Virus record (IMG/VR): IMGVR_UViG_3300021431_000109
Span: 15,017 to 79,016 of that record
Source: a virus
Taxonomy: Duplodnaviria > Caudoviricetes
Reading direction: 5' to 3' (one strand)
Length of the DNA stretch: 64,000 nucleotides
Shown here: piece after piece, positions 97 through 21,682 of the stretch
How positions within the stretch are numbered: the stretch's first letter is position 1
How the letters are laid out: every line of letters starts with the position of its first letter
Notes under the pieces: model-generated
The model's database searches: none
What the model saw: the letters and a program-made list of their open reading frames with translations, nothing else
What the model was told of the DNA's origin: nothing
Program-made: the position numbers and the translations under genes

Positions 97-144
97 GTTA
101 GACACCTCTAACTCGCGCCGGCCGCGGAGTTAGATTACTCTAAC
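97..144. repeat. Double-palindrome intergenic element, copy 1
   Basis: GTTAGA-CACC-TCTAAC, 16-nt spacer containing CGCCGGC, then GTTAGA-TTAC-TCTAAC; overlaps the stop codon of the exonuclease gene. Confidence 0.9.
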
Positions 145-800
145 TCCGTATATCCTCTGCGGAGGCATTCCATGAGGATTTCGGTTTCAATTTCTACATC
201 TGCAAGCCCCGTGTGCGCTTCTTCAAAGTCGTTATTGTTGGACAAATAGCGCCAAATAACTTCTGCTGTGGCCTTGGGGCGCGGGGTTTCATGCGCGGTC
301 ATGTAGTTATTTTCTTTACAAAACTTGATGTAATCTTCGGTCTTACAAATGACCTTTCTTGCCATCCTCATGGTGTCTGCGGTCTTAATGCCATACGGGA
401 GGAAAAATCGCTTCTTGCTCTTGGTTTGGTATCTCATAGTTGCATTAAGCACTGCAATGTCAAATCTGATATTATGCGCGACCACTTCTTCTACATGATA
501 GTCTTGGCACATCTGGTTGAAAATCTTCCACATCTTCCATGTATCTACTACTTGACGTTCGCCGCGCTTGATTTCTTCAATGTATCGCGGGAACTTATCT
601 TTATAATATGCGTCACTCATGGCCTTGGGCATACCATAAAATACATCCCCGTTGATAAGATTTAACTTATCAAGGATGATGCCGCCATCATTAACAACCT
701 GTCCACCAAGGTCATAAGCCTGACCATTTTCTACATCCAGTTGGCCATTTGGCAAGCGGTCAGTCATGCAAGTTTCACAGTCAAATACCATACGATTCAT
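135..800 (-). CDS. DEDDh (DnaQ-like) 3'-5' exonuclease
   Basis: ExoI VFDCET, ExoII VAHNIRFD, ExoIII EAHTGLADVEIE motifs; own promoter at 851-879. Confidence 0.85.
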   Translation of the reverse strand: MNRMVFDCETCMTDRLPNGQLDVENGQAYDLGGQVVNDGGIILDKLNLINGDVFYGMPKAMSDAYYKDKFPRYIEEIKRGERQVVDTWKMWKIFNQMCQDYHVEEVVAHNIRFDIAVLNATMRYQTKSKKRFFLPYGIKTADTMRMARKVICKTEDYIKFCKENNYMTAHETPRPKATAEVIWRYLSNNNDFEEAHTGLADVEIETEILMECLRRGYTELE

Positions 801-899
801 TGGGTTAATTTCCTTTCTGGTTTGTAGTGTTTTCCTTCACTTCATGGCATAGTATACCACGCGAAAGGATGTTTGTCAAGGGTTTTTGTAATTTTTTTA

Positions 900-946
900 G
901 TTAGTGCCCCTTAACTGCGGCGCCGGCGCGGTTAAACGTCTCTAAC
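900..946. repeat. Double-palindrome element, copy 2
   Basis: GTTAGT-GCCC-CTTAAC ... CGCCGGC ... GTTAAA-CGTC-TCTAAC. Confidence 0.85.
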
Positions 947-970
947 TCGCTTTAATAAAAAGGGCGCGGG

Positions 971-1372
971 TTACTCCGCGTCCTCATGAATCATACCATC
1001 AAGGCCCTTTTCGTTCAATTCCTTAACGACCTTCTTCGCTTCGCGCTTCGCCTGGTCGGCGGCAATCTTCGCGGCCTTCTTCGCGGTGGCTGCGGCCTTC
1101 TTCGCGGCCTTCTCTTCCAGTTCGGCCTTATAGTCATCAGCGGCAACCTCACCGTCAAAGGCTTCATAACCGCCCTTGCCATCACGAGTACCGCGAGGAA
1201 CAGAAACGGAAATCTTTACATATTTTTCGTTGCCCTCTTCGTCAGTAGTGGGGAACACAATCGCAGAAGAGGAAATAGAGAGCGCGTCCATGTTGTACTT
1301 CTGGGACACAAACTCAATAATGTCGCGGAGAGTAACGTTGCGGAGATTGGTGTTCAGAGCGGTCTGTGTCAT
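971..1372 (-). CDS. Hypothetical protein with Lys/Ala-rich C-terminus
   Basis: Start MTQTALN chosen after promoter (1427-1455) and SD; tail AKKAAATAKKAAKIAA. Confidence 0.75.
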   Translation of the reverse strand: MTQTALNTNLRNVTLRDIIEFVSQKYNMDALSISSSAIVFPTTDEEGNEKYVKISVSVPRGTRDGKGGYEAFDGEVAADDYKAELEEKAAKKAAATAKKAAKIAADQAKREAKKVVKELNEKGLDGMIHEDAE

Positions 1373-1495
1373 AGTTTTTACTTCCCTTCTGGTTTGGTGG
1401 GTTTTCCTTCCCTTGATTACGTTATTATTATACTGCAATTTTGAAAAATTGTCAAGTATTTTTCTAAAAAAATTTTTAAAAAATTTTTGCTCTTG

Positions 1496-1545
1496 GTTAG
1501 ATGCCTCTAACCGCCACGCCGGCGAAGGAGTTAAACGTATTTAAC
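1496..1545. repeat. Double-palindrome element, copy 3
   Basis: GTTAGA-TGCC-TCTAAC-N18(CGCCGGC)-GTTAAA-CGTA-TTTAAC. Confidence 0.9.
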
Positions 1546-1552
1546 TGGGCGA

Positions 1553-1993
1553 TTACTCGCCCAGTTCGCGCAATACGCTGATTATCTCTGTGGGGTCAAA
1601 GGCTTTGTCCTGCCATGCCTTGCGGTTGCCTTCCTCATCGTCGAAGAGAATACCACCACCGCACTCAATGTATTTATTGGTGCCATAATTTACAATGCGG
1701 ATTTCGTCCCAGATAACACTTGGAAGATGCTTGTGAAGCCAACACAGCTTAGAGAGAGCAACCGCGCCATTATAGAGGTCAGAGCCATTGCGGCTTGTCC
1801 AGCTGATAATTCCGAGCTTCCAGCCGTTGCGCTGTGCCTTATGCAGCAGTTTTGCCAGCTGAGAGAAGTTCAGCATAGGCGCAGCTACGTCATAGGGCCG
1901 CGTGCGCTCAGCTCGCAGGTCTTCAAGCCAGCCCTCTACGGCGTATAGGTTGGCAATAGTGCCATCCATGTCGAACCATATCATCTTTTCCAT
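1553..1993 (-). CDS. HAD-superfamily phosphatase / 5'(3')-nucleotidase-like protein
   Basis: Motif I WFDMDGTIA, motif IV LFDD; promoter at 2044-2072. Confidence 0.8.
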   Translation of the reverse strand: MEKMIWFDMDGTIANLYAVEGWLEDLRAERTRPYDVAAPMLNFSQLAKLLHKAQRNGWKLGIISWTSRNGSDLYNGAVALSKLCWLHKHLPSVIWDEIRIVNYGTNKYIECGGGILFDDEEGNRKAWQDKAFDPTEIISVLRELGE

Positions 1994-2096
1994 GCAGATG
2001 CCCTTCTGGTTTGTGGGGTTTTCCTTCCCCTTTCTGCACTTGAATTATACCACAGGCGGGCGCGGTTGTCAAGCACTTTTTGAAAAAAATTTTTGA

Positions 2097-2146
2097 GTTA
2101 AACGCCTCTAACTCCCGCGCCGGCAGAATAGTTAGACGCCTTTAAC
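2097..2146. repeat. Double-palindrome element, copy 4 (between divergent promoters)
   Basis: GTTAAA-CGCC-TCTAAC-N18(CGCCGGC)-GTTAGA-CGCC-TTTAAC; an extra GCCGGC follows. Confidence 0.9.
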
Positions 2147-2259
2147 TAAGCTGCCGGCGAAAAATTAATTTAAAATTTTTTCAAAAAGGGGTTGACAAGT
2201 GCCGTCCGGCATGTTATAATAAAGGCGTCCCAAGGGGATAAGAAAGGAAGGTAAACACC

Positions 2260-2709
2260 ATGACGCGTGAACAGATGATTAAACTCTACAACCTGCTGAG
2301 CGCCGCCAATGCTTATATTATTGGATTCGTTATGAATGGCATTCTGTACTATGTTATGCAAGAGCATATCAATGATGCATACCTGAAAATGGACCGGATG
2401 AGTAGTAAGCGCGGCGGCTGGGCAAAAATCCGCGTCCGCGTGCCAAGCGATGAAATGTGGAAACTGGTGAACAGTGGCGCGGCGATTGCGCTGGGTACGG
2501 CGTCAATGCTGAACTTTGAAGATAAGTATAATGACGGTGAACATTTTGAACGGGTTATAACGGAAATGTTCACAAACAAAAAGTGGGAAAAAGATTCTGT
2601 CCCCTTTAATGTCGCTGGTGATATCAATGTAAATGGTAAAGAGATTCAGATTAAGTTTAACGGCGCGGAACTCACCAATGAAAAAACTTTAAGCCGCATG
2701 GCGGCTTAA
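2260..2709 (+). CDS. Hypothetical protein, possible PD-(D/E)xK nuclease fold; paralog of 7466-7936
   Basis: GEHFE...GDINVNGKEIQIK pattern; promoter at 2192 and SD. Confidence 0.7.
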   Translation: MTREQMIKLYNLLSAANAYIIGFVMNGILYYVMQEHINDAYLKMDRMSSKRGGWAKIRVRVPSDEMWKLVNSGAAIALGTASMLNFEDKYNDGEHFERVITEMFTNKKWEKDSVPFNVAGDINVNGKEIQIKFNGAELTNEKTLSRMAA

Positions 2710-2790
2710 AGTTTTTTTCAAAAAGGTATTGACAAGCGCCGAAGTGTATGGTATAATAAATACGTAAAAAGGAAACGGGAGGGCAAACAA

Positions 2791-2976
2791 ATGACCACTA
2801 TCTTGACCATCATCTTCGTCGCAATTATCGCCTTTGAACTCTTCGCGGTTACACCATTTGGTGTATATTTTGCCTTGAAAGATTTGGATAATGGCAAGCC
2901 CGCGCGCCTACTAATCGCGGCTTTCGTCCTTGCTATCCCTGCCGTAGTTATTGCAAATATTTTAGGCATAGCATAA
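2791..2976 (+). CDS. Small membrane protein (2 hydrophobic segments)
   Basis: Promoter at 2729, SD GGGAGG, hydrophobic helices. Confidence 0.7.
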   Translation: MTTILTIIFVAIIAFELFAVTPFGVYFALKDLDNGKPARLLIAAFVLAIPAVVIANILGIA

Positions 2977-3026
2977 AAATATTGAAAATATTAAAAAGGA
3001 CCGGGGCCCTTTTTAATTAATGTCAT

Positions 3027-3076
3027 GTTAGAGTCCTTTAACCTTCGCGCCGGCACATCTGTTAGAGTCCTCTAAC
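3027..3076. repeat. Double-palindrome element, copy 5
   Basis: GTTAGA-GTCC-TTTAAC-N18(CGCCGGC)-GTTAGA-GTCC-TCTAAC. Confidence 0.9.
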
Positions 3077-3295
3077 CTATGGTTGGACCCCTCCTGAACC
3101 TGCCCGGCCTCTCTCCGGTCTCCCCGGTGTCCTCGACTGTGATTATATTATAACATGCCGGCGCGGATTCGTCAAGGGGTTTTTGAAAAAATTTTTTAAA
3201 AAGTTTTTTAAAAAACTGTTGACAAACCGGCCATTATGTGTTATACTTTAATCACGGTAAGGGAAGAACCTGCCGAAGAAATGGAGGACGAAGCA

Positions 3296-3520
3296 ATGAA
3301 GTTTTTGAAGAAAGAAAGCAAAAAGGAAAAGGGATATAAAATTGCTTTTTGTGACACGCCCGATCTTTCGACTAAATTTGGTGAATGGAAGGGAATTTTT
3401 GATACCTATTCTTCGGCTGACCATTGCATCAGAATGGGATGGGGAAAGGCTATCAAAGCAAAAACAACTGACGCATATGAAATTGATAGCGCTTGGTTGG
3501 TTATTGAAAAAATTTCTTGA
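3296..3520 (+). CDS. Hypothetical protein (74 aa)
   Basis: Promoter at 3219, SD GGAGG before ATG 3296. Confidence 0.65.
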   Translation: MKFLKKESKKEKGYKIAFCDTPDLSTKFGEWKGIFDTYSSADHCIRMGWGKAIKAKTTDAYEIDSAWLVIEKIS

Positions 3521-3618
3521 AAATTTTTTTTAAAAAAACTGTTGACAAACCGGCCATTGTATGTTATACTGTATTCGTAAAGAGGAAGGAAAACCTCCTA
3601 AACCAGAAAGGCGAAACA

Positions 3619-3909
3619 ATGACGAAGGCGATGATGGAGAAGGTCGAAAACCTGCGGAAATTCATTGAGAACAAAAAATTATCCTATGATCATTTGTGTG
3701 ATATCCTGCGGGCTCATTCGGAATTTCCTTCTGTGACTACCTTGCGGAGATACAACCTATTAAAGATAGTCGGTCATGAAGAATTTGAAGTGACTATGAC
3801 TGATGACGAAGCAGACTATCAGTATTATGAAGATATGGATGGTTTTGAATGGGATGAAAATAGAAACCTGTGGGTAATGATGGACTCGATAAACTATTAC
3901 GGAATATGA
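3619..3909 (+). CDS. Hypothetical protein (96 aa)
   Basis: Promoter at 3542, leader hairpin, SD; terminator follows. Confidence 0.7.
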   Translation: MTKAMMEKVENLRKFIENKKLSYDHLCDILRAHSEFPSVTTLRRYNLLKIVGHEEFEVTMTDDEADYQYYEDMDGFEWDENRNLWVMMDSINYYGI

Positions 3910-3938
3910 GGGCGCGAGCCTTCTTTTTTTCTTGATGA

Positions 3939-3988
3939 GTTAGATACCTCTAACTAAGCCGCCGGCGCGGCGATTAGGCATCTTTAAC
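3939..3988. repeat. Double-palindrome element, copy 6
   Basis: GTTAGA-TACC-TCTAAC-N18(CGCCGGC)-ATTAGG-CATC-TTTAAC. Confidence 0.85.
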
Positions 3989-4104
3989 CACTGCGCCGAT
4001 GACGAAAGGTAAGGCAGATTGAGTGAAAATTTTTTCAAAAAAGTATTGACAAAATGCCGGGTACGTGTTATAATAAAGCCATCAAAGAGAGGGAGGACAA
4101 AACG

Positions 4105-4269
4105 ATGACAAAGCGGTACGTAACTCGGCAGTATCTCTGGAATACATTCTACACTTGGGGAGTATGGGATAAAAAAGAATGTAAATGGATTGTTAATGAT
4201 AGATTGTACAGAAGGAACGTCATAGAAATCGCTGACAAATTAAACAAAGAAGAACAAAAAAAGTATTGA
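4105..4269 (+). CDS. Hypothetical protein (54 aa)
   Basis: Promoter at 4046, SD GGAGG; stop TGA lies inside the next -35 box. Confidence 0.65.
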   Translation: MTKRYVTRQYLWNTFYTWGVWDKKECKWIVNDRLYRRNVIEIADKLNKEEQKKY

Positions 4270-4323
4270 CAAATCCTAAAACCCGTGCTATAATAAATAC
4301 ATCAAATGAAGGGAGCCGCAACA

Positions 4324-4494
4324 ATGAAGAAGGAAATCACTTACACTGAACAGGAACTCAAAAATTGGTTTGAAGAAATGAAGAAGAAATATCCGCATTC
4401 AATGGCAGAAGAACATTTCCGCTTTGTTGAAATGAATATGTTTGACCATTGGAATGAAGAAAATAATTTGAAAAATGTGCTTGACAAATCTTAA
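4324..4494 (+). CDS. Hypothetical protein (56 aa)
   Basis: Promoter at 4266, SD GGGAG; last codons encode the next -35 box. Confidence 0.65.
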   Translation: MKKEITYTEQELKNWFEEMKKKYPHSMAEEHFRFVEMNMFDHWNEENNLKNVLDKS

Positions 4495-4558
4495 AATCGG
4501 TGTTATAATAAAGTCACAAAAGGGAAAGGAAAATCCCCAACACCAGAAAGGAACTGAG

Positions 4559-4726
4559 ATGGAAGAACTGCTGAATGAAATCGCGCGGACCTGGGGCCTG
4601 GAAGTTGAAGAAACCGTGGAAGTCTTCCGCATGGCGGAACGCGGCGAGAGCGTTGAAACCATCAAAGAATACAAGCGACTGGTGGAAGGAATGTGGGAAA
4701 ATGATTACTTCGGGTTTGACCTCTAA
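4559..4726 (+). CDS. Hypothetical acidic protein (55 aa)
   Basis: Promoter at 4481, leader hairpin, SD; terminator GGGTTTGACC-TCTAA-GGTCAAACCC-TTTT. Confidence 0.7.
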   Translation: MEELLNEIARTWGLEVEETVEVFRMAERGESVETIKEYKRLVEGMWENDYFGFDL

Positions 4727-4753
4727 GGTCAAACCCTTTTAAAATGAAATTGA

Positions 4754-4803
4754 GTTAGTTGTCTTTAACTCACGCGCCGGCATATTAGTTAGAGTCATCT
4801 AAC
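4754..4803. repeat. Double-palindrome element, copy 7
   Basis: GTTAGT-TGTC-TTTAAC-N18(CGCCGGC)-GTTAGA-GTCA-TCTAAC. Confidence 0.9.
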
Positions 4804-4928
4804 TATAATTTATGGGTACCAATTCCATTATATCACTTTCGGGATACTTTGTCAATACCTTTTTAAAAAAATTTTTTGAAATTATGGGATTAAAATTATG
4901 AACTAAAAAAGTGATTGGATTATTCCAA

Positions 4929-5078
4929 TCACCTTGAAATTGCGCAAATTTGTTTAACTTCCCACGGCTGGCCACTAATCGCGCGTCGTATGGCCGCGGC
5001 CTTTTGGGCCTCTTCATATGTACCATAGTGCATGTTGCCGATAAACCCGTGGCATGAAATTACATAGTAGACAGTCAT
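4929..5078 (-). CDS. Small hypothetical protein (49 aa, MTVYYVISCHGFIG...), absent from ORF track
   Basis: Promoter at 5108-5136, SD GGAGG, open frame to TGA. Confidence 0.65.
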   Translation of the reverse strand: MTVYYVISCHGFIGNMHYGTYEEAQKAAAIRRAISGQPWEVKQICAISR

Positions 5079-5168
5079 TGGAACGTCCTCCTTCATTTGA
5101 TGACTATATTATAACATGGTTTCGGGATTTTGTCAATAGTATTTTGAAATTATTTTCCGTTTGAGATT

Positions 5169-5197
5169 CGCCGGCGAATTAGTTAGACCGCTCTAAT
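5169..5197. repeat. Half element (CGCCGGC + one palindrome), copy 8
   Basis: CGCCGGC-GAATTA-GTTAGA-CCGC-TCTAAT. Confidence 0.75.
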
Positions 5198-5226
5198 CGT
5201 GATATAATAAAAAGAGTTGACTTGCG

Positions 5227-5397
5227 TCAACTCTTCGTAAAAGTCGCTATTTCCTCTCCTGTGGCGAGATTCGTAATATGTGCAGTAAAGAAGTCTGGTT
5301 CTTCATAATAAATTGCTAACGCTCTCATAATGCTGGGCAAGTCGGCTCTTTCTGTTTTAGTGGTCTGGTCATTCCATGCGGTGATAAGTTCGTACAT
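5227..5397 (-). CDS. Small hypothetical protein (56 aa, MYELITAWNDQ...), absent from ORF track
   Basis: Promoter at 5427-5455, SD GGGAG, terminator AAGAGTTGAC/GTCAACTCTT. Confidence 0.65.
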   Translation of the reverse strand: MYELITAWNDQTTKTERADLPSIMRALAIYYEEPDFFTAHITNLATGEEIATFTKS

Positions 5398-5451
5398 GGT
5401 AGTTACTCCCTTCTTTTGATGCCTTTATTATACCATATCTGTCCTACTATG

Positions 5452-5733
5452 TCAATACTTTATTTCAATTATTCCATCATCTACTATTGTGGTAGTGTTC
5501 ATGCTATCCATTGTCATGATGACTGATGTGCCTTGTGGCCGCACTTCGGTGCCCTTCATACCCCACACATTACCGTTCTCATCACGTATTAGTGTTATAT
5601 TTTCTGTATAATCTACCCTATAGATTTCGCCCTGTAAGGTATAAGTCTTATGTTGTGGTTGATGCAGACAGAGAAAAGCAACAAGAAGAGAGACGATTGC
5701 GGCAATGATAAGACCAAGAGTGTTGTTCTTCAT
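5452..5733 (-). CDS. Protein with N-terminal signal/TM segment (93 aa)
   Basis: MKNNTLGLIIAAIVSLLVAFLCL; promoter at 5769-5797. Confidence 0.7.
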   Translation of the reverse strand: MKNNTLGLIIAAIVSLLVAFLCLHQPQHKTYTLQGEIYRVDYTENITLIRDENGNVWGMKGTEVRPQGTSVIMTMDSMNTTTIVDDGIIEIKY

Positions 5734-5819
5734 GATGATTACTTCCTTTCTGCCCTTTGGACGTGTTTATTATAACATGTTTTTTCTATCGTGTCAAGTA
5801 TATTTATAAAAATTTTCTG

Positions 5820-5869
5820 GTTAGATGCATTGAACTTCTGCGCCGGCACGATGGTTAGACACTTCTAAC
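5820..5869. repeat. Double-palindrome element, copy 9
   Basis: GTTAGA-TGCA-TTGAAC-N18(CGCCGGC)-GTTAGA-CACT-TCTAAC. Confidence 0.9.
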
Positions 5870-5877
5870 TGACACAG

Positions 5878-5994
5878 AAAAAATAAGCGGTTAAAACCGC
5901 TTAGATTGCAGACCTTTTATTTGCACCTTTGAGAACCCTTGTGTCTGCGCCCTTAAAGAGCGGGTTCGGCGGGAGTATCTGCCTCTCTCCCCGT
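5878..5994 (-). ncRNA. Candidate small structured RNA
   Basis: Promoter TTGACA-N17-TATTAT (6001-6029) and terminator AAGCGGTT/AACCGCTT-T-tract enclose ~115 nt with no ATG ORF and nested stems (GGGAG/CTCCC, GAACCC/GGGTTC). Confidence 0.5.
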
Positions 5995-6152
5995 GACTAT
6001 ATAATAACATAAAGCCTGATAAATGTCAAGCATTTTTTCAAAAAAAATAAAAAAACTTTTTTTAAAAAAACCCTTGACAACCGTATTTTTATATGGTATT
6101 ATATACACGTAAAGAGGAAGGAAAACCTCAACAAACCAGAAAGGTAAAGATT

Positions 6153-6596
6153 ATGAAGACCACTCGTTATGAAGACATGTTTTCTGCTGTGACCAAAGCC
6201 AAGTGGACAACTGAAAAACTGGACGAAGTTATTGAGTATCTTCGCGCGAATCCGCGTAGTAGTGTTGCTGATATTCGCAAGGCAGTGTATAGTGATAGTG
6301 CGGACTATTTGAAGCAGTCTAACGCAACTCACATCGCGGCCATGCTGCGGACTCTGCGCAATTATAATATTGTTACTGTTGATACCAAACAGGGTGAACC
6401 GATTCAGATTGAAGTTGAAGAGTATGGTCCGTTTGAGGATGAAGGTTATCCTTTGCAGATTGAAGTAACTGATGCAAAAGGTAACAAGTATATTATTGAT
6501 AATCCTTATTATAAAACTCGTCAGTTTCGATATGGATATAGAAAAATCAAGAAGTGGATTACTCCCGTAATTAGCATCTATTCGCTGTGTGCGTAA
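6153..6596 (+). CDS. Hypothetical protein, possible winged-helix N-terminus (147 aa)
   Basis: Promoter at 6074, leader hairpin, SD; VIEYLRANPRSSVADIRKAV; terminator at 6596-6620. Confidence 0.7.
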   Translation: MKTTRYEDMFSAVTKAKWTTEKLDEVIEYLRANPRSSVADIRKAVYSDSADYLKQSNATHIAAMLRTLRNYNIVTVDTKQGEPIQIEVEEYGPFEDEGYPLQIEVTDAKGNKYIIDNPYYKTRQFRYGYRKIKKWITPVISIYSLCA

Positions 6597-6631
6597 AAAG
6601 AGGGCAATGCCCTCTTTTTTAATGCCATTCG

Positions 6632-6656
6632 GTTAGTATCATCTAACTGCGCCGGC
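6632..6656. repeat. Half element, copy 10
   Basis: GTTAGT-ATCA-TCTAAC-TG-CGCCGGC. Confidence 0.75.
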
Positions 6657-6756
6657 GAAAAAATTTTTCAAAAACCCCTTGACAATATCATAGTTATCTG
6701 CTATAATGATTACACAAAGGACAAGGAAAAGTCCTAAAAACCAGAAAGGATTCACT

Positions 6757-7071
6757 ATGAACGCTGCTGAGATTAAGTCTGTTGCCCGCGCGAACACCGT
6801 TGCTTATTTTACTGATGTGCTGAACGCGCATGATGCTGTACAGTTTGGCGAAGCGTCTTGGGCGATTCTGCAAGAGGTCGATGGACAGGAAGTCTGGTGT
6901 GAAGTCACTGTGAAAACCAAAGCGTATAAAGCTACGAAAGTAACGCCCGTGTTCGACCCGTTTGAAGTCGCGGAAGTATGGAAGGCTGAGAAGGCACAGA
7001 AGGAAGCCGAAAAGGCTGAGAAGGAAGCTGAAAAGGCCCGCAAGGCAGAAGAGAAAAAGAAGGCTGAGTAA
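6757..7071 (+). CDS. Hypothetical protein with Lys/Ala/Glu-rich C-terminus (104 aa)
   Basis: Promoter at 6679, leader hairpin, SD; tail KAEKAQKEAEKAEKEAEKARKAEEKKKAE. Confidence 0.75.
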   Translation: MNAAEIKSVARANTVAYFTDVLNAHDAVQFGEASWAILQEVDGQEVWCEVTVKTKAYKATKVTPVFDPFEVAEVWKAEKAQKEAEKAEKEAEKARKAEEKKKAE

Positions 7072-7091
7072 GCCTTCTTTTTTCGTTGGTG

Positions 7092-7141
7092 GTTAGATGC
7101 CTCTAACTCTTACGCCGGCATAAAAGTTAGATGTGTCTAAC
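7092..7141. repeat. Double-palindrome element, copy 11 (between convergent genes)
   Basis: GTTAGA-TGCC-TCTAAC-N18(CGCCGGC)-GTTAGA-TGTG-TCTAAC. Confidence 0.9.
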
Positions 7142-7176
7142 CAGTTAGAATAAAAAAAAGAGCCTTACGGCTCTTT

Positions 7177-7362
7177 TTATTTGTAGATAATTGTATATCC
7201 GATGCGGCCGAAGTGTGCCATATAATCAGATACTACCTGCGAAGTCTCGCCGTCATCATCGGTATATACGATAATCGTCTTGCCGCTTACTTTGATTTCA
7301 CCCTTATCCTGTAATACTACCAGGTGCTGCTCCGCGCTCATCTCTCTACGATACTTCATCAT
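7177..7362 (-). CDS. Hypothetical protein (~61 aa)
   Basis: Promoter at 7413-7441, leader hairpin, terminator at 7150-7180. Confidence 0.7.
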   Translation of the reverse strand: MMKYRREMSAEQHLVVLQDKGEIKVSGKTIIVYTDDDGETSQVVSDYMAHFGRIGYTIIYK

Positions 7363-7465
7363 TGTAGCTTCCTTTCCGGTTTGAAGGGTTTACCTTCCCT
7401 TTTGTTGCTTTTATTATATCACGGTTTACTTGGCTTGTCAAGTACTTTTTTCTTGCTGGGCTGGC

Positions 7466-7936
7466 TTATTCAGCCAGTCCCAGCAGGTTGAGCACGTTGC
7501 TCAGGGTCTTTTCGTTGGTCAGCTCGGCGCCATCGAGCTTAATTTGGATTTCTTCGCCGTTTACGTTGATGTCGCCCTTGATGTAGTAGGGAACGCTGTC
7601 CTTTTCCCACTTTTCGCTGATCAGCTTTTCAGTGATAATCCGCTCGAAGTTTTCGCCTTTGTTGTGCTTGCTGTCGGCACTCAGGTCGCCCACGGTCCCG
7701 ACTTCCACAGCTTTACCGCTTGCGATGAACATCCACGCTTGGTCGCTGTTGACGCGGACACGAATCTTGTTATATCCGCCGCGCGCGGCGCTGCACTTGT
7801 CAGCTTTCAGCAGCGCGGTCAGCTCAGCGAATGTCAGCTTGACGTAATACAGGCGGCCGGACTTGATAAAACCGACAATGTAGGAGTGCGCGCCCGCGGT
7901 CTTGTTGTACCAATAAATCATGCTCTCGTGTGTCAT
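7466..7936 (-). CDS. Hypothetical protein, possible PD-(D/E)xK fold; paralog of 2260-2709
   Basis: GENFE...GDINVNGEEIQIKLDGAELTNEKTL shared with the paralog; promoter at 7984-8012. Confidence 0.7.
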   Translation of the reverse strand: MTHESMIYWYNKTAGAHSYIVGFIKSGRLYYVKLTFAELTALLKADKCSAARGGYNKIRVRVNSDQAWMFIASGKAVEVGTVGDLSADSKHNKGENFERIITEKLISEKWEKDSVPYYIKGDINVNGEEIQIKLDGAELTNEKTLSNVLNLLGLAE

Positions 7937-8063
7937 AGTGAAGCCCCTTCCCGGCCGGGTGTCCCGGCCCCTTGATTGACTATATATTACCATATAACCG
8001 GGCGCTTGTCAACAGTTTTTTTTGATTTTTTGAAAAAAATTTTTTGACTATATCCCCGCCGTA

Positions 8064-8100
8064 GTTAAACGCATCTAACCGCCGGTTAGACACCTTGAAC
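8064..8100. repeat. Compact double-palindrome element, copy 12 (last copy)
   Basis: GTTAAA-CGCA-TCTAAC-CGCCG-GTTAGA-CACC-TTGAAC. Confidence 0.8.
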
Positions 8101-8362
8101 CGCCGTATACAAAAAAATAACAGAATGCGACAGGGTGCAATTTTTTTATACCATTGCGCGCGCAAGTTTTCGCGCGTCAGTATACCCCGGGGGCATACAT
8201 GTAGGATTTGGCCAGATTTTGACCGTATTTGACATGGGGCCTCCCATTTTCTCTACACCCGGTAAATTTTAAAACCCATCTCAACAAAATTAAAAACCCA
8301 AATACTTGACACGCCAAAACCCCCTATGTTATAATATAATTACCAAAGTGAGGTGAACGCCC

Positions 8363-9664
8363 ATGAAAAAGAAATACTCACTAAACTACGACATCGAGCG
8401 AGATATCGACCGCGTAGCAGCTGTGAAAGATATTTTAGACTAGCTGGCAACCGACCCCACGCCGCTAGAATTAGAATAGATGGGGTCATATATTTTGTAT
8501 GGGAAGGATGAAAATGGTTTGAATGCGGTTTAGCGCGGCGAAACCACGGACGGCAATAGACGCTACGGTTCATTTAAGAAAAAAGACGATAAGTTGCTTT
8601 CATTAGATGAAATTGTTGATAATCCGTTGGCCGACCAACAAGCATTAAAGCCCATATCATAGAAACAAAATTATACAAAAAAGAAGCCCGAAATCCGCAA
8701 GCCCAAATACGATAAGAAAACCGGCGAACTTATTGATATTGGCGATGCGGATATTCCTGGCATGTAGGAGCTCTGGGATCGTATCGCGCACCTAGAACAT
8801 ATTGTGGCACAAAATGAAGGCAAGGCCGCGATAGATGAAGATACGCGTCTACTTGATAATGGATACCGCCTTTATTAGTTGAAACATATGCTAATTGATG
8901 TGCGCCGCCACCAATACTACCTAAAAGACGCATATAAGCCCACATTGCATTTCCAAACAATAGACCACCCAAAGGCCGCATTCTATGATTGGACATCCGA
9001 CGCATCATATTGGATGCCGCGCGAGTAGTGGCAAGAGCGTGTCGATAACGCCCTTCTATCTTCTATCTCCCGCGACATTAATGACTATGAGACGCGCAAC
9101 AATGGGGCGGAAGTAAAATGGATTGTAAGAAGGCATACATTTGATTGGGAAAATCCGCTACATGTAAGAGCACTTATAAATAATTATGATGCGTTGCGCG
9201 ACCAATTTAGAGAGAAAATAGATACCTACGGCCGCACCCTATTATTTGATTTTGAACGTTATAGAGATATGGCCAATCTAACTGAATTGCGCGCGTACAT
9301 ACTGCGGCTTAAAATAGAGCGTGTTCCATACTCCGACATCATAAATGAACTTCAATTAAAGTTTGGCATTAAATATAATGAAAATCATTTATGTACTATA
9401 CTTTCGCGCGAAATACCAGAACGTATCGCAGAAGCCGCGCGCAAATATCATCTATTATTAGACACGCCGCGCGAAAAAACTAAACTATGTAAATATTGCG
9501 GCCGCTACCTACCAGTTGACCCGCTATTCTTCGTGCGCAACCGCAGCCGCAAAGATGGATTCTCGGGCACTTGTAAGGAATGTGAAAAAAAGAAACGTAT
9601 TGAACGAGGAGGTTAGGGAGTAAATGACAGACGAACTAAAGAAGCGCAAATGTATCAAGTGTAA
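8363..9664 (+). CDS. 433-aa protein with C-terminal HTH-like segment and Zn finger (TAG=Gln)
   Basis: Single frame from MKKKYSLNY to TAA interrupted only by TAG; CKYC...CKEC motif. Confidence 0.75.
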
Positions 9665-10562
9665 GTAGGAGCGGCCCGAAAACTTCTTTTGCTATACACC
9701 ATCACCATACTTTCCCGCGCATCGCTCTATAATATGTACACCATGCTTGGAAAAGATGGTATAGCAAGATAACTTAGGAGAAGTTGATAGATTATGTCGC
9801 TATCTAGATGTTCCTTTTGACCTTAACAAATGGACACAACTTTATAAAGTAAATGGGGAGCATACATTAACGGCCTACTTCAACCTACTTTTAGACGATC
9901 ATTACGATAACTTGTAGTGGATGGATGAAAATGAAAGATGGCGTATTGCGCGCGCCGAAGGCACCATTAATGACGAGATAGAAGTTATTAATGAAGCGAA
10001 AATGAAGAAATTGAAAAAAGAGTGGTCAGCCACATATACAAAAGATGAACTGCTTTTTCTTGATGAGTTTTATAATAATATTGTGGCATCCCAAAATGTT
10101 TCTACTCCAATTCTTCAACACTACGCGCGTGACCTTTGCGAAATTGAGTTGAGAATTAAGAAGGGATTACGTAATGGGGCGGATATTAAAAAGGATATGG
10201 ACGCCCGCGACAATATTATTAAAATTGCGAAGTTTGAAGCCAGTAATGCAAAATCCGCGGCAGACTTTGAATCCGTAGGAGAACTAATGGTCTATTACGG
10301 CAAAAAGGGCTGGCATCCTAAATGGCATGTTGAGCCACGCGATTCTATTGATTTTATGATGTAGAATATTTAGAACTATATCAAGCGCCTTGTAATTAAC
10401 GAAGGTAATTTCGCTGAACAGGTTGAAGACGCGCGCGAACGTTATAACATGACGGAGCGTCTTGAAGAGATAGAGAACGAGGCGGTTGAGTTTGATGAAA
10501 ATGCAGATATTGAATATGAGGGAGAAGATGAATTCGCGGGCGACCTCAATGGGGAGGGGTAA
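9624..10562 (+). CDS. 312-aa Zn-finger protein, putative terminase small subunit (TAG=Gln)
   Basis: CIKC...CTPC at N-terminus, acidic tail, directly upstream of terL. Confidence 0.6.
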
Positions 10563-10564
10563 TA

Positions 10565-12343
10565 ATGGCGGATTTAATATTACGCGATGGTATACCCATT
10601 GAGAAAGGTGTTGTACTTACTAAGGAGTTTTTAGACGCGAATCAAGAATTATTCACTTCATATTTAAATCTTTGGATATTATATCCGGACTTATATTTAG
10701 ATACTATATAGGATTCAGAAGATGCAAAAAACTTCCATTTAATGCCCTTCCAACGCATTGCTCTTCGCGCGAGTATGCGATACAGATATCACAGTTGGAC
10801 TGCTACCCGCGCGACTTCAAAATCATTTACTGCTTATTTAAGTAGCATTGTGCGCGCGGTTCTATTACCACGCTCCAATATTATGATTGCTTCTGATGTT
10901 AAAGGCACGGTTGTTAAAATTGCCGAAGCCAAGTTTGAAGAAATCTTCCGCCATTGGCCGCTATTAGAGAAAGAACTTGCCACACGTGGTGATGATGGCA
11001 AAACCGGTATTAAATCTAGTAATAACTATTACGAACTGCGGTTTAAAAATGGCAGTATGATTACTGTTGTTGCAAAAGATACCTCTCGTGGTCTTCGTGC
11101 TACGGCGGCAATATTAGAGGAAGCCGCACTAATTGACGAAGTGCCATATACCGAAGTTCTATTACCACAAATGAATATCAAGCGCCGCGAAGTTGATGGC
11201 ACCATTAATCCAGAAGAACCTTCTTCTCCACAAACATTTATTACGACCGCGGCAGAACGTACCGTTTTCATGTACTCTAAGGTTATAGAAATTGCTATTA
11301 ACATGGTATTGCGGCCGAATGAATATTTCTGCTGGGGCCTTTCTTACGAAGTCCCGCTACATTACGGGCTTGTAGATAAAGCTACAATATTAGACCAGCG
11401 TTATTCTAATACAGTAAGTGAAGAGTCTTTCGCGCGTGAAAATCTGAGCATATGGACTGGTAATAATAAAGAAGCCTGGCTAAATAGTTCTAGATTAAAT
11501 AAAAAGAGAACTTTATTAAAATGCGAGCGTAAAGCACAAGAGAATCCTGCTAATCCTAAAACATTTTATTTGATAGGTGTTGACGTCGCAAGATATTCTG
11601 CTAATACTGCCGTTATGGTAGCCAAGGTACTACCAAATGTAAATGGATTTAGAAAGAATATTGTATATACAGAAGTAATACATGGCGCAAACTATATTAC
11701 CGAACAAGCGCCGCGGCTAAAAAAATTAATTTAGTTATATAATCCGCGCGAGATTGTTATTGACGGAAACGGCCCCGGTATTGGTTTACTTGATGCTATG
11801 GTGTTACCGTCTTTTGATGCAAAAACGGGTGAGTCTTTCCCAGCATACTTTACTTTCAATAATGAGTATCATTTGCCGCCAGAATTAAAGCATGAAGAAG
11901 AAGCACCTCGGCCAGAGTTTAATGCGATTATTTATGACATTAAAGCCGGGTCTTCTAATGACGACGCTATTCATTCTAACTTCTTTGCTCAGATAAACAA
12001 TGGCTCGGTGAATTTCCTCGCAAGCGAACGCATTGTTAAAGATAAACTAATGCTTACGAAGAAAGGGAAAAAGATGGATTTATATAATAGACGCGCGTTT
12101 TTACTACCATATGAAATGACGTCGCGGCTAATGGATGAGCTAAATAATCTGCGGCTGAAACCTACCGGTATATAGAATCAATTTAAAGTTGAACGTATTT
12201 CTAACTCAATTGAAAAAGACCGTTTCTCTGCGTTAGAGTACACTTTATATAGAGTTAAATATTACGAAGATAAAGCCAATAAAAGAAATAAGAAACGAGA
12301 TTTTAAATCTTCAATTCACTTTACTCCAAGAAGAAGGAGGTGA
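10565..12343 (+). CDS. terL: Terminase large subunit, 592 aa (TAG=Gln)
   Basis: Walker A region ATRATSKS, Walker B ILEEAAL, nuclease IGVDVAR, IDGNGPG, KDRFSAL; three fragments in one frame joined at TAG. Confidence 0.92.
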
Positions 12344-12348
12344 TTTAA

Positions 12349-13896
12349 TTGGCAGAAACACGTGATTTTACATCCTTTAAGAAACGAATGAAACCTATTG
12401 CCCGAGCACCTATTTCTTCGCGGGTTTATAGAAATAAATATGGATGGTAGATTTCCGATCCTGTACGTTCCGATTTTACATTGGAAGAAATATAGGAAAT
12501 CATTCGCTCCGGGGACATAATAGCGCTGCGAGAGTTATCACGATATTTTTATCGCACTAATAGTGAATATAGAAATAATATAGATTTTCTCGCGCATTTG
12601 CCATTATATGATACAGTGGTAATTCCTAATTTTGAAGAGGGCAAAGGCTCAAAGACGCAAATCATCAAAGCATTCTATAATGCTTGCGATTTTATTGATA
12701 AATTAGATGTCCCAAATACTTTCGCAAATATAACTGCGGAATGGATTAAAAATGGTATTTATTATGGTATATTACGAATGGATGGTAATAAACCAGTAAT
12801 TCAAGATTTACCAATAGAGTTTTGCCGCTCACGCTTTAAGGATTTTAATAATCTAAATATGATAGAGTTTAATGTAATGTATTTTGAATCTATCCATGAT
12901 GACGACTTACGAAAAGAGGCGGTTGCTTCTTTCCCAGAAGTAATTCAAAAAGCATGGGCGGAGTGGGTTCGCGGTGGCAAACGCACAGACCCGTGGGTAC
13001 TATTACCTGCTGGTGCTGGTGGAGTTTGTTTCTTCTTTCAACACGACCAGACACCACTTCTAATTGCGAGCATACCACAATTAAAAAAGCTTGATAATGC
13101 TATCGGCCGCGAAGAAAAGCGTGATGAAAATGAATTATATAAATTATTAATTCAAAAAATGCCGGTAGATAAAGATGGTGAATTAGTTTTCTAGTTAGAT
13201 GAAGTTGCAGATATTCATGAATCTGTTGCTGAAATGCTCCAAGAAATTGATACGGTTGATGTATTAACTACATTTGGCGATACGGATTTAGAAAGCCTAC
13301 AAGAATCTAGCGCCGCATCTCAATCCGCGGATAGAATAGAAAAATATCGTAAAAATGTTTGGGATGCTCTTGGCCGCGGTAATATACTATTTAATCCAGA
13401 TGGTAGCTCTTCTCTTGCTTACGCAATTAAAAAAGATGAAGCGCTAATGATTGCATATTTAAATATGTATGAAACTTGGATTAAATATCATATTAATGAT
13501 AAGTTTTCACGCACTGGGCTTACATTTGATTTTGAAATAATTCCCACCACTGTTTTTAACCGCAACGATTTACAGACTGCTTATTTCCGTGGTGCGCAAT
13601 ATGGTTATTCTAAAATGTTTGCGGGCGTTGTAATGGGCATCAAGCAAATGAGTCAATTAAGTCTAATGAACTTTGAAAATGATTTCTTAAAGATGTCAGA
13701 AAAGATGATTCCATTGCAATCTTCTTATACTACTTCTGGTAATGTAGTAGCAAGTGAAGGAAAAACTTCGCAAACTGCACAAAAAACTAGTAATAATTCA
13801 TCGGGTGGCAACCTAGAAAATAAGGGAGGCCGTCCCGAGCTTCCTGATGAAGAAAAATCTGAAAAGACCTAGGCCAACATCGCGGCCGCGGGCTAA
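12349..13896 (+). CDS. Portal protein, 515 aa (TAG=Gln)
   Basis: Position after terL, size, C-terminal GGRPE motif; TTG start after SD AGGAGG. Confidence 0.85.
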
Positions 13897-13908
13897 GGAG
13901 AATGACTT

Positions 13909-15147
13909 ATGGATAGACAGATACCAATTTATTTTGATACTATCATTATTGATTCTCCAACCCAAGAAATATCTAATGAGGATTTAAATGCTTGCCGCTT
14001 ACATGTGGGCGTTTTTACAAAATATAAAAATCGTAACGGCTCATATATTACCGACGATTACGCTGATTTTTTAATTAAATCCGCGACCCGCGGCAATTGC
14101 CCAGTAGTTGGCTTCTTTGACCCAGAAGGCCAAGAATGGGCTTCCCATACAGGACCTAAACTTGCTAATGGCTATGGTTATGTAGAGGGCTTTGATGGCT
14201 GGATTCCATTTGAAGATACGGATGGAGTCACCCGTGACTATGCGACTTTTTCTGTAATTCTCTTTACTGATTATTATGAAGAAGCACGCAAAATCAAGGG
14301 CCAACATCAAAGTATGGAATTAGATCCCGACACAATAGATGGCGCTTGGACTGAATTTGATGGAGAACCATACTTTGTTTACACAAAAGGAAACATGCTT
14401 GGTTTTTGTGTAATTGGGGCACATGAACCTTGCTTTTCAGTATCATCTTTCTTTTCTAAAAATGATGATACATATAAATCACAATATGAGAAGTTCTCTT
14501 CGCTTTTGTCAGGGTTAAAAGAAAAGTTTGAAGAGACTCAAAGAACTACAAAGGGAGGAGAACAACCAATGGATGAGAATATGAATAAAGAAGTTGAAGA
14601 ACCAGTGGTCAATCCTGCCGAAGAACCAACTGAATTTGATAATGCCGAGCAAGGCGAAGCACCTGCCGCGGCGGAAGAACCAGTTGTAGAAGAACCTGTT
14701 GCTGCGGAAGAACCCGCTGAACCAACAGAATTTGAAAAACTTCAACAGGCATATGACACCCTACAAGCTTCTTTCAATGAATTACAAACTAAATTTGATG
14801 AAGCAACAAATAACATTTCTGAGTTTAATGCTACTATTGAAGAATTAAAGGCAGAAAATGCAAAGCTACAAACCGCGGTTGCGAATTATCAAGCGGTTGA
14901 AGCACAAATTGAAGTGGATAAGAAAAACACTTTAATTGAAAAATATGAAAAAGTTTTAGAAGAAGAAGAAATTAATGAAATTAAGAATAAGATTAATGAC
15001 TTCTCTTACGACGAATTAGAAGGTAAATTAGCGATTGTATTTGCTAATAAGCAAATGACTGGCAGTGAGGAATCCACTAAGAAAGTGCCCCTACCAGAAC
15101 CTGAAAAATCTTCTTTCGCTTTACTTATTGAAAAGTATCGTAAATAA
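13909..15147 (+). CDS. Prohead protease/scaffold protein (412 aa)
   Basis: N-terminal NRNG...QSMEL...C.IG..EP protease-like part, acidic linker and coiled-coil C-terminus; between portal and capsid. Confidence 0.8.
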   Translation: MDRQIPIYFDTIIIDSPTQEISNEDLNACRLHVGVFTKYKNRNGSYITDDYADFLIKSATRGNCPVVGFFDPEGQEWASHTGPKLANGYGYVEGFDGWIPFEDTDGVTRDYATFSVILFTDYYEEARKIKGQHQSMELDPDTIDGAWTEFDGEPYFVYTKGNMLGFCVIGAHEPCFSVSSFFSKNDDTYKSQYEKFSSLLSGLKEKFEETQRTTKGGEQPMDENMNKEVEEPVVNPAEEPTEFDNAEQGEAPAAAEEPVVEEPVAAEEPAEPTEFEKLQQAYDTLQASFNELQTKFDEATNNISEFNATIEELKAENAKLQTAVANYQAVEAQIEVDKKNTLIEKYEKVLEEEEINEIKNKINDFSYDELEGKLAIVFANKQMTGSEESTKKVPLPEPEKSSFALLIEKYRK

Positions 15148-15169
15148 TTATTTTAGGAGGGAATAAGTT

Positions 15170-15736: not shown

Positions 15737-15754
15737 TAAAGGAGGTGCGGACTT

Positions 15755-16822: not shown

Positions 16823-16836
16823 GGATTAATATATAT

Positions 16837-16864
16837 GGGGCGAGGATAACCTCGCCCCGCTTTT
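16837..16864 (+). terminator. Rho-independent terminator after MCP
   Basis: GGGGCGAGG-ATAA-CCTCGCCCC-GCTTTT. Confidence 0.8.
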
Positions 16865-16890
16865 CGGAGATAAAAGGAGGATATTATTTT

Positions 16891-17334: not shown

Positions 17335-17336
17335 AA

Positions 17337-19306: not shown

Positions 19307-19317
19307 GGTGAGTAGAG

Positions 19318-20608: not shown

Positions 20609-20631
20609 TTTAATTACAGGAGGTAACTACT

Positions 20632-21612: not shown

Positions 21613-21630
21613 TAATTTATGATATAATTA

Positions 21631-21666
21631 ACTAGGGACAGTAAAGCTGTCCCTAGTTATTTTTTT
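21631..21666 (+). terminator. Rho-independent terminator after major tail gene
   Basis: ACTAGGGACAG-TAAAG-CTGTCCCTAGT-TATTTTTTT. Confidence 0.85.
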
Positions 21667-21682
21667 ATGGGCGGTGAGCCAT

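Follow-up and report, generated by a model that had tools for sequence, protein, structure and literature searches.

The early region of the phage analyzed here carries an array of repeated, two-fold symmetric elements, each of which is best read, from its sequence, as a predicted composite protein-binding site on double-stranded DNA. Our best reading, to which we assign a probability of roughly 0.55, is that these elements form an array of predicted host iron-repressor operators, which would serve as a decoy, as an iron-dependent roadblock, or as both. Since the arms of the elements match the site of a host iron-sensing repressor, the appearance of the elements is that of protein-binding sites with which a host regulator is sensed or sequestered, and not that of recombination sites.

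Organization and conservation of the elements

When the window, that is, the whole 64,000-nucleotide stretch under analysis, was searched for GTTAGA-N4-TCTAAC with at most one mismatch, 17 matches were found versus 0.16 expected from shuffled sequence; 16 of them lie within 97-8079, and one, at 34797, is chance-like. These counts bear out the repeats described in the initial annotation, and a recount likewise gave twelve elements in the window: seven strictly full ones (arm spacing of 34 bp, in one case 32), two with one degenerate arm, and three that are half or compressed. The elements and a promoter associated with them are listed below in window coordinates, the elements having no strand assignment.

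96-145: element 1, full; arms 97-112 and 129-144, core GCCGGC 117-122, arm spacing 32 bp; upstream of the minus-strand promoter 66-38; its right arm contains the end of the ORF 800-135
899-946: element 2; left arm 901-916 (degenerate), other arm 931-946, core 922-927; terminator 980-965 on one side, minus-strand promoter 879-851 on the other
1496-1545: element 3, full; arms 1496-1511 and 1530-1545, core 1518-1523; upstream of the minus-strand promoter 1455-1427
2097-2158: element 4, full, but with two cores, one at 2119-2124 and another at 2153-2158; arms 2097-2112 and 2131-2146; flanked by the divergent promoters 2072-2044 (minus) and 2192-2220 (plus)
3027-3076: element 5, full; preceded by the bidirectional terminator 2990-3017 and read into from 3175-3147, a minus-strand promoter without a gene
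3147-3175, minus strand: promoter TTGACG-17-TATAAT; its spacer holds a GCCGGC core (3157-3162)
3939-3988: element 6, half; an arm at 3939-3954 and the core at 3961-3966, with the right arm (3973-3988) degenerate
4754-4803: element 7, full; at a convergent junction, after a terminator near 4715-4740; 23 bp away lies 4855-4827, a minus-strand promoter without a gene that fires into the element
5170-5197: element 8, half; a core at 5170-5175 and a single arm at 5182-5197; terminator 5236-5211 on one side, minus-strand promoter 5136-5108 on the other
5820-5869: element 9, full; between terminator 5903-5884 and minus-strand promoter 5797-5769
6632-6656: element 10, half, with an arm at 6632-6647 and a core at 6651-6656; 22 nt separate this core from the downstream -35 box of the plus-strand promoter 6679-6707
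7092-7141: element 11, full; between convergent terminators (about 7050-7080, plus; 7178-7155, minus), with no adjoining promoter
8064-8100: element 12, compressed; arms 8064-8079 and 8085-8100, linker CCGCCGG; last element on the right of the array, lying upstream of promoter 8012-7984; the sigma-factor gene promoter 8306-8335 follows 205 bp after it

A promoter with the core in its spacer, like that at 3147-3175, is also found in the relatives L027 (4950) and L034 (4441), and thus in three lineages. Element 6 belongs to a 505-bp promoter-to-promoter indel, and the relative G001 does not have that segment.

The array is about twice as large as initially described, as the first base of the window falls in the middle of it: the whole array runs from 7142 to 23116 of the genome (window -7874 to 8100) and comprises about 24 elements in 16 kb. 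Of the 26 GCCGGC sites in the 79-kb record, 23 lie within the array. In a complete 179-kb relative, all 24 exact matches are located at 41-57 kb, in the early-gene block only. An element is present at nearly every early-gene boundary of the phage, and, as had been noticed before, tandem, divergent and convergent promoter-gene-terminator junctions all carry elements.

The full element spans 52 bp with two-fold symmetry (RGTTAGA-N4-TCTAACY, N5, GCCGGC, N5, RGTTAGA-N4-TCTAACY), so that two 18-bp dyads, RGTTAG-N6-CTAACY, stand one on each side of a 6-bp GC palindrome. The claim that geometry is conserved held across genomes, since 51 of the 60 full elements from six genomes have exactly this register. 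When the two halves of 162 distinct palindromes were compared, stem position 5 was G-C in 112, G-T in 23, A-C in 19 and A-T in 7; at stem position 6, T-T or A-A was found in 37 of 149 palindromes, and the centre of the palindrome shows a symmetric B-R-Y-V preference. Variation in one half is therefore independent of that in the other, a pattern that agrees with binding of a protein dimer to double-stranded DNA and not with a hairpin. Between lineages that are approximately 87% identical, conservation reached 94.6% in the half-sites and 94.2% in the core, with 73% in the N4 centres, 73% in the spacers and 82% in the flanks. Purifying selection, as read from these identities, is limited to the half-sites and the core. 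This position-specific conservation and the independence of the halves support symmetric protein-binding sites, which the initial annotation had offered as an alternative.

Similarity of the arms to iron-repressor operators

The half-sites GTTAG/CTAAC of the phage arms are those of the DtxR consensus TTAGGTTAGCCTAACCTAA (PMC7762939). The arms share both this half-site and the dyad symmetry with the DtxR/IdeR iron boxes, but the half-sites are 6 bp apart in the phage (N6) and 1 bp apart in the iron boxes (N1); furthermore, the phage sites, which are predicted from sequence, differ in occurring as about 24 paired copies, in having an added GC core, and in lying mostly upstream of promoters. In 60 genomes of the Acutalibacteraceae, GTTAG-N6-CTAAC was found 212 times, compared with 106 for the control. 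Of the host sites that were examined, 24 out of 27 are intergenic, typically directly after the -10 box and often paired 24-36 bp apart. The genes downstream of them include four for FeoB, one FeoA-domain gene and two for DtxR-family repressors, as well as genes for a ZIP transporter, ABC transporters and a flavodoxin-fused diiron protein, and in four of these genomes PF01325 genes are located 0.1-2.6 kb from such sites. The motif is thus found at iron-uptake and repressor-gene promoters in a candidate host family, whose assignment is based on phage-like contigs binned in one metagenome-assembled genome (MAG), in which PF01325 gave no match. The phage itself is a large gut or rumen phage with a Gram-positive-like host, and its 179-kb relative is virulent-looking.

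The correspondence with the host sites is not complete. Most host sites are of the form GTTAGC/GCTAAC or GTTAGT/ACTAAC, and the variant preferred by the phage, GTTAGA/TCTAAC, is rarer in hosts, so that the affinity of the arms for the host protein is not assured. In addition, most elements are located 10-60 bp upstream of the -35 box, past the UP tract, whereas the host sites lie over the core promoter. Occlusion by a site placed over -35, -10 or +1, as at iron boxes, did not account for the phage layout, in which an element is read into only from the gene-less promoters at 3175 and 4855. The fixed arm spacing of 34 bp and the unvarying GC core are not explained by a host iron repressor on its own.

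Comparison with the related phages bears on the core. When their sites were compared with published operator consensus sequences (PMC12634643, PMC4168254), eight exact CtsR boxes, one exact CIRCE and runs of the WalR consensus were found beside the same GC core. From these sequences, the GC core is a constant punctuation mark that is set beside differing operators of host regulators (CtsR, HrcA/CIRCE, WalR-type).

Cassette turnover at the junction modules

Between positions 1 and 8400, the window contains 22 promoters with 10-12 of 12 consensus matches and adjacent terminators. Each cassette is served by a consensus promoter of its own, and cassettes of both orientations are present. The small genes are flanked by composites of a terminator and a strong sigma70-type early promoter, as are the small ORFan genes in the PeSL modules of T4-type phages (PMC2839356, PMC4122927). 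Among 30 indels of at least 100 bp in four relatives, none of the 60 junctions fell within an element (background 5.7%), while 37 fell within the repeated UP tract, the core promoter or the leader (background 23%), with homology visible in the flanks, as expected of PeSL junctions. Indel junctions between close relatives of T4-type phages likewise fall in the modules (PMC2839356, PMC4122927), but PeSL has no embedded operator, whereas here a 52-bp element, which is not the exchange point, lies between the terminator and the promoter. Mini-circles were not seen for this phage in the comparison with PeSL. The gain, loss and inversion of cassettes that had been proposed is real in that small genes were gained and lost and, in a diverged relative, inverted; the PeSL precedent cited with it explains the shuffling, although by way of the promoter/terminator module and not of the element. 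Judged from the junctions, cassettes turn over through sequence homology between copies of the UP tract, promoter and leader, as in PeSL shuffling.

Alternative explanations

The initial annotation had proposed recombination at the elements, which would make them integron-like or other site-specific recombination sites at which a recombinase cuts the GC core and moves or inverts cassettes. The likeness on which this was based is literally correct, as the half-sites do fit GTTRRRY and RYYYAAC and, like integron attC sites, mark the boundaries of small cassettes; the 52-bp symmetry with a palindromic centre is reminiscent of serine-recombinase sites, relatives differ in their cassettes (G004, a diverged relative, has families 2, 6 and 27 in inverted orientation), gene-less promoter-plus-element units occur, and a single low-depth read joint (3955 to 5915) begins at an arm edge. 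However, all other read joints were located at promoter/leader repeats and had short sides, and the absence of junctions from the elements, with 37 of 60 in promoter modules, is not that of integron core sites. Nor do the cassettes conform to those of integrons, which are promoterless, in one orientation and served by a common Pc. The attC site is an R''-L''/L'-R' bulged hairpin used by IntI, whereas the phage element consists of two 16-18-bp palindromes 34 bp apart around GCCGGC, in which pairing is not selected; the arms are palindromic themselves and are swapped for other kinds of host operator in relatives. Furthermore, the complete 179-kb relative gave no match to Phage_integrase, Resolvase or ParB_N, so that neither a tyrosine nor a serine recombinase was found there, and a search for an IntI-type tyrosine recombinase (PF00589, E <= 0.01) was negative for both G000 and G001, a relative that is 100% complete. 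We therefore regard recombination at the GC core as very improbable; on the comparisons above, the elements are not the recombination sites. It is just as improbable that the folded palindromes act as RNA or extruded-DNA hairpins, such as terminators, processing sites or cruciforms. The elements are located at 3' ends of transcription units, some ORFs lack a separate terminator and end inside them, two promoters direct transcription straight into them, and their single-strand folding is good (z of -2.4 to -4.8), but such folding is a trivial consequence of palindromic sequence. Mismatches occur in 25-30% of the stems, A-C and G-T are equally frequent so that no strand is preferred, the stems have no following U-tract, most elements lie 3' of a canonical terminator and would thus rarely be transcribed, and an Rfam search of the element gave no match. 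A functionless passenger, copied along with the repeated terminator-promoter junction module, would explain why the element always travels with that PeSL-like module; this is hardly credible given the conservation of 94-95% in the half-sites and core against 73% in the intervening bases, and given that the motif is retained where the flanks of the lineages are down to 72% identity.

A binder encoded by the phage deserves more weight, even though we consider it unlikely. The arms would be bound by a dimeric winged-helix protein of the phage, and the core perhaps by another, to form a global early-gene switch or a stoperator-like roadblock, so that approximately 45 consensus promoters would be shut off or insulated once the phage sigma factor takes over; in that case, mimicry or chance would account for the resemblance to host iron boxes. 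Such a binder could be a member of family 0, which comprises 3-4 paralogous 110-aa proteins of the early block, whose structural model (pLDDT 89) terminates in a winged helix and which is present in most arm-carrying relatives, or a 122-aa wHTH protein of G001 with a weak, sub-threshold match to the DtxR HTH (PF01325). It is also in favor of a phage protein that position 6 has the consensus A in the phage versus mostly C or T in hosts, that the core occurs inside promoter spacers as well, and that the distances from the core centre to the -35 box are clustered at 25, 36, 47-48 and 64 bp upstream of promoters. The helical periodicity of the element-promoter distances is weak, however (p about 0.05), no phage protein reached the threshold for a sequence-specific-repressor family, consensus promoters need no activator, and a place beyond the UP tract is poor for simple occlusion. 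Moreover, the GC core accompanies exact operators of several host regulators in relatives and is therefore hard to fit to a single phage protein. Precedents are the stoperators (PMC9283540) and SPBRE/MrpR (PMC10516654). The stoperators of cluster A mycobacteriophages are, like the phage array, dozens of intergenic copies of one binding site, and they can block elongation when a promoter reads in, as the array also may; however, they are 13-bp, asymmetric, oriented with transcription and bound by the monomeric immunity repressor of a temperate phage (PMC9283540, PMC6550527), whereas the phage sites are symmetric, paired, core-linked and host-operator-like. An integrase (domain search, complete 179-kb relative), an immunity repressor or a lysogeny module was not found. 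The SPBRE repeats of the Bacillus phage SPbeta are likewise repeated intergenic docking sites of a regulator in a large Firmicutes phage, and their binder, MrpR, is a phage-encoded master repressor of a prophage.

Possible roles of the array

If the arms are iron-repressor operators, they would be iron boxes whose sequence is the one that DtxR-family proteins in the likely host group employ at the promoters of feoAB, of metal transporters and of the repressor genes themselves. Because the arms carry this sequence, the Fe2+-loaded repressor, or a phage-made look-alike, should occupy every boundary between early transcription units, a spot that would be the short non-transcribed gap from the terminator to the next UP element and promoter. 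As a decoy, the 37 to 54 operators per phage genome copy, compared with a handful in the host, would pull the repressor off host promoters and thereby raise iron uptake. As a roadblock, the bound repressor would block, in an iron-dependent manner, the promoters that fire into an element (3175 and 4855 in the window), and the order of promoter and then operator would be that found at host genes. The tox operator of corynephage beta is a precedent for a host iron repressor acting on phage DNA.

More tentatively, and with the odds against it, the early region may be a protein-free DNA sponge that titrates host repressors for the benefit of the phage, that of iron here and CtsR, HrcA and WalR-type regulators in relatives. 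The operators would then arrive in the cell first and increase with replication, and titration would turn on host iron uptake and, in the relatives, the chaperone and protease regulons. Within the early block, such a sponge would have its operators in the gaps that alone escape transcription, and a conserved GC palindrome would stand next to each of them.

The element and the early units

A search for GTTAGA-N4-TCTAAC with at most one mismatch gave 17 matches in the window, 16 of them within 97-8079, and shuffled sequences gave 0.16. When the copies were aligned on GCCGGC, the full unit was found to be RGTTAGA-N4-TCTAACY, N5, GCCGGC, N5, RGTTAGA-N4-TCTAACY, an element of 52 bp with two-fold symmetry about the core. 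The array starts at genome position 7142, whereas the window covers 15017-79016; the array therefore spans 16 kb, with about 24 elements, and reaches beyond the window. GCCGGC occurs 26 times in the 79-kb record, 23 times inside the array, and its scarcity elsewhere is consistent with a GC content of 36%; restriction-driven avoidance of GCCGGC outside the array was considered and rejected (Markov expectation 2.8, observed 3). Five contigs from relatives were recovered by a scan for the composite pattern, one of which is a complete 179-kb genome with 24 of its 24 exact sites at 41-57 kb. The twelve copies that the initial annotation had counted in the window were recovered with the fixed geometry described there, and the mixed types of junction were borne out by our map of promoters, terminators and elements. 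Selection acts on the element, a composite site that is confined to early-unit boundaries.

An early unit opens with an A/T-rich UP tract and a consensus promoter (TTGACA-17-(TG)TATAAT), followed by a leader that is conserved, a single small gene or a few of them, and usually a terminator. The element is located between the end of one unit and the next UP tract, leaving 10-60 bp to the -35 box downstream and 0-45 bp to the ORF or terminator that precedes it; no element accompanies a promoter whose preceding gene lacks a terminator. Most early transcripts (window 811-7401) carry the 5' leader AGGAAGGAAAACC...AAACCAGAAAGG, 8-10 nt before the ATG. Distances from element core to promoter cluster at 25, 36, 47-48 and 64 bp; helical phasing was not relied on, since the periodogram was only marginal (p 0.05-0.07 within lineages). 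Some units depart from this layout:

Units of unusual layout (window coordinates)
7092-7141: element between two convergent terminators, an exception
3175-3147, minus strand: gene-less promoter firing into an element, then a terminator ("empty" unit, 3077-3175)
4855-4827, minus strand: gene-less promoter firing into an element, then a terminator ("empty" unit, 4804-4855)
5878-6029, minus strand: ORF-less unit with promoter, about 115 nt, terminator and then element 9; start GGGGAGAGAGGC

An "empty" unit contains no ORF: its consensus promoter and short purine-rich leader lead directly into the element, and a terminator comes next. Several such units are also present in the diverged relative G004 (contig L018). 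GCCGGC lies within the spacer of the promoter at 3175, whose leader is conserved in the relatives L027 and L034. The "empty" units could be a source of short iron-regulated RNAs. The start of the ORF-less unit resembles their leaders.

It was also observed that in the full elements (for example, window 97-144) the TAG and TAA codons of the arms close all three frames in both directions, because the arm offset of 34 bp is 1 mod 3, and that several ORFs, such as 800-135, terminate within an element.

Cassette turnover

Gene order is mostly collinear in four relatives, with gains and losses, and in G004 the cassettes are reshuffled and the early protein families 2, 6 and 27 are inverted. All 30 indels of at least 100 bp are promoter-plus-gene units. 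Of their 60 junctions, 37 map to a UP tract, a core promoter or a leader (background 23%) and none to the element (background 5.7%), and left and right junctions have 15-80 bp of promoter or leader homology in common; repeats of the AGGAAGGAAAACC...AAACCAGAAAGG leader are one of the places where the junctions fall. Reads were available as Logan contigs only, in which stretches without coverage are uninformative. All but one of the DNA joints in contigs of the source sample are at promoter/leader repeats, with short sides, and contigs of the source-sample RNA library lie within early ORFs, one of them ending at 145 beside an arm at depth 2.8, an end that allows no interpretation. The complete 179-kb relative yielded no match to a tyrosine recombinase, a serine recombinase or ParB.

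Cassette turnover is thus real and works like PeSL shuffling (PMC2839356, PMC4122927), the precedent already cited in the initial annotation, since most junctions are in promoter modules, none is in the element and a recombinase was not found in the complete relative. For the same reasons, the integron-like reading, in which the elements were to be recombination sites, is unsupported; the gain, loss and inversion of cassettes proposed with it do take place, the inversions in G004, with gain and loss running through the promoter and leader instead of the element. The present case extends PeSL shuffling to a large phage that is siphovirus-like and has Gram-positive-type hosts; the recombining sequence (promoter plus leader) can be told apart from the conserved binding element.

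A protein site on duplex DNA

The elements fold well, as follows from their palindromic sequence. Among 162 distinct palindromes the two halves vary independently: the pairs at stem position 5 are G-C in 112, G-T in 23, A-C in 19 and A-T in 7, T-T or A-A make up a quarter of the pairs at position 6, and the four central bases follow a symmetric B-R-Y-V preference. Such independence is the mark of a dimer that recognises two half-sites in double-stranded DNA, not of base pairing. An RNA or hairpin reading was rejected on these pair statistics, and Rfam gave no match to the element. Conservation between lineages that are about 87% identical is position-specific:

Identity between lineages by part of the element
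Half-sites: 94.6%
GC core: 94.2%
N4 centres: 73%
Spacers: 73%
Flanks: 82%

Together with the independent variation of the halves, this favours the alternative offered in the initial annotation, namely protein-binding sites.

Candidate proteins for the arms

For a host regulator, 60 genomes were searched from the family of a MAG in which phage-like contigs had been binned. GTTAG-N6-CTAAC, the form of the arm that predominates in this phage, had 212 matches, against 106 for the control, and 24 of the 27 sites examined are intergenic, typically just past the -10 box and often paired. The genes behind these sites include FeoB (four times), a FeoA-domain gene, two DtxR-family repressors, a ZIP transporter, several ABC transporters and a flavodoxin-fused diiron protein, and in four genomes DtxR-family genes are located 0.1-2.6 kb from a site. 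The DtxR consensus has the same GTTAG/CTAAC half-site as the phage arm (PMC7762939). The arms are identical in form to this iron operator of the candidate host genomes, and owing to the iron-gene neighbours, the nearby DtxR-family genes and the common half-site they are best read as putative iron boxes of a DtxR-family repressor. For the DtxR-family repressors of poorly studied gut and rumen Clostridia, the comparison would also provide an operator that can be tested (RGTTAG-N6-CTAACY) as well as a candidate iron regulon. One site, inside an ORF of a 29% GC genome (MAG G007:C8), was taken as chance.

The full composite was on no host chromosome in the search of bacterial genomes, which gave four matches: two were phage-like contigs binned in MAGs and the other two, single and in unrelated MAGs, were taken as chance. 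Three contigs of 15-24 kb (L040/L044, L042 and L043; e.g. JAZQHA010000077.1) in the Acutalibacteraceae MAG G006 are phage early arrays of the same family with 14-18 perfect promoters each, one of them with hybrid elements that combine arms of two operator types. Carry-over during binning is the probable origin of these contigs, which hint only weakly at the host.

More distant relatives, found through the sigma factor gene, keep a (GG)CCGG(CC) core some 25 bp before the -35 box of early promoters and differ in the arms. Their arms include eight exact CtsR boxes (L027, L029, L034, L042), one exact CIRCE element (L042) and WalR-consensus runs, with consensus sequences checked against PMC12634643 and PMC4168254. 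WalR-type matches occur in the present phage as well, three in tandem at genome 7171-7209 and another two that are core-linked. At the left border of the array (L020:7155-7260 in genome coordinates, 7.8 kb left of the window), five TGTAAY hexamers phased at 11 bp make up three exact WalR-type matches (TGTWAH-N5-TGTWAH); immediately downstream of them is a plus-strand promoter that reads into an element, a layout that recurs in the MAG contig L038. An invariant GC core beside operators of several unrelated regulators points to a further factor. The core is, we presume, similar to the ram motif of RacA (TGACGCCGGCGTCA).

A host iron repressor alone does not account for the invariant GC core, for the strict spacing of the arms at 34 bp or for the A preference at position 6. 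A phage regulator that mimics the host operator and binds the arms is a serious alternative, because the phage encodes winged-helix proteins of its own: family 0, with three to four paralogues (model pLDDT 89, weak winged-helix matches), and, in the complete relative, a 122-aa wHTH protein whose match to the DtxR HTH is below threshold. Early proteins of note include the following:

Early proteins (L020, genome coordinates; otherwise window)
L020:8546-8887, 13186-13521 and 14545-14913, minus strand: three paralogues of 111-122 aa, with three N-terminal helices and a C-terminal winged helix
2260-2709 (plus) and 7466-7936 (minus): family 1 paralogues of about 150 aa, with motifs GENFERIITE, GDI and QIK
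971-1372 (minus), 6757-7071 (plus) and L020:9971-10306 (minus): three families that combine a small beta-rich N-terminal part with a long tail rich in Lys, Ala and Glu

The 111-122-aa paralogues are conserved in most related arrays and are candidate DNA binders. Pfam gave no match at curated threshold for the ten conserved early proteins. Family 1, the most widely conserved, has a confident AlphaFold model (pLDDT 90, pTM 0.83) and may represent a new fold; a small nuclease was suspected, and Foldseek with VIA-align gave no PDB match above Z 2.8, which leaves the family unassigned. The Lys/Ala/Glu-rich tails are linker-histone-like in composition, and the wHTH protein of the complete relative (L071:2102-2470) has the same tail.

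Possible roles of the array

If the arms bind the host iron repressor, about two dozen early-unit boundaries would be wired to the host metal sensor, and the role could be iron sensing or drawing the repressor off host genes. The metal-loaded repressor would occupy the elements, and 37-54 operators per genome could titrate it and derepress iron uptake, which might be useful to a phage carrying an anaerobic ribonucleotide reductase. The promoters reading into an element would copy host promoter-operator pairs and be blocked in an iron-dependent manner, and a protein bound at the elements, which occupy the sole non-transcribed gaps in a block under heavy transcription, would not be swept off. 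Host repressors acting on single phage genes, operator/stoperator arrays of phage repressors and PeSL cassettes are precedents; to our knowledge, regulator capture by decoy-operator arrays is not an established phage strategy. New by comparison is the way in which putative host iron boxes, paired around a conserved GC core, recur at one boundary after another in a virulent-looking phage.

Gene content and other sites

A sigma factor gene directly follows the array. TAG must be decoded as Gln in the late genes. The gene content comprises a 5,759-aa frame, portal, terminase-like and virion proteins, as well as a DnaE-type polymerase, NrdD, DnaB and RecJ. By the portal, the closest cultured relatives are large Firmicutes phages (Enterococcus, Lactococcus, Bacillus). 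In the whole record GATC is strongly depleted (7 against 42 expected in the array, 50 against 165 elsewhere) and TCGA and CCGG are likewise low, a composition that suggests pressure by host restriction systems. An exact clostridial-type Rex box, TTGTTAA-N4-TTAACAA, lies within a late ORF at window 17554-17571 and may be a chance match in AT-rich DNA; exact Rex boxes are present in L037 and L043, too.
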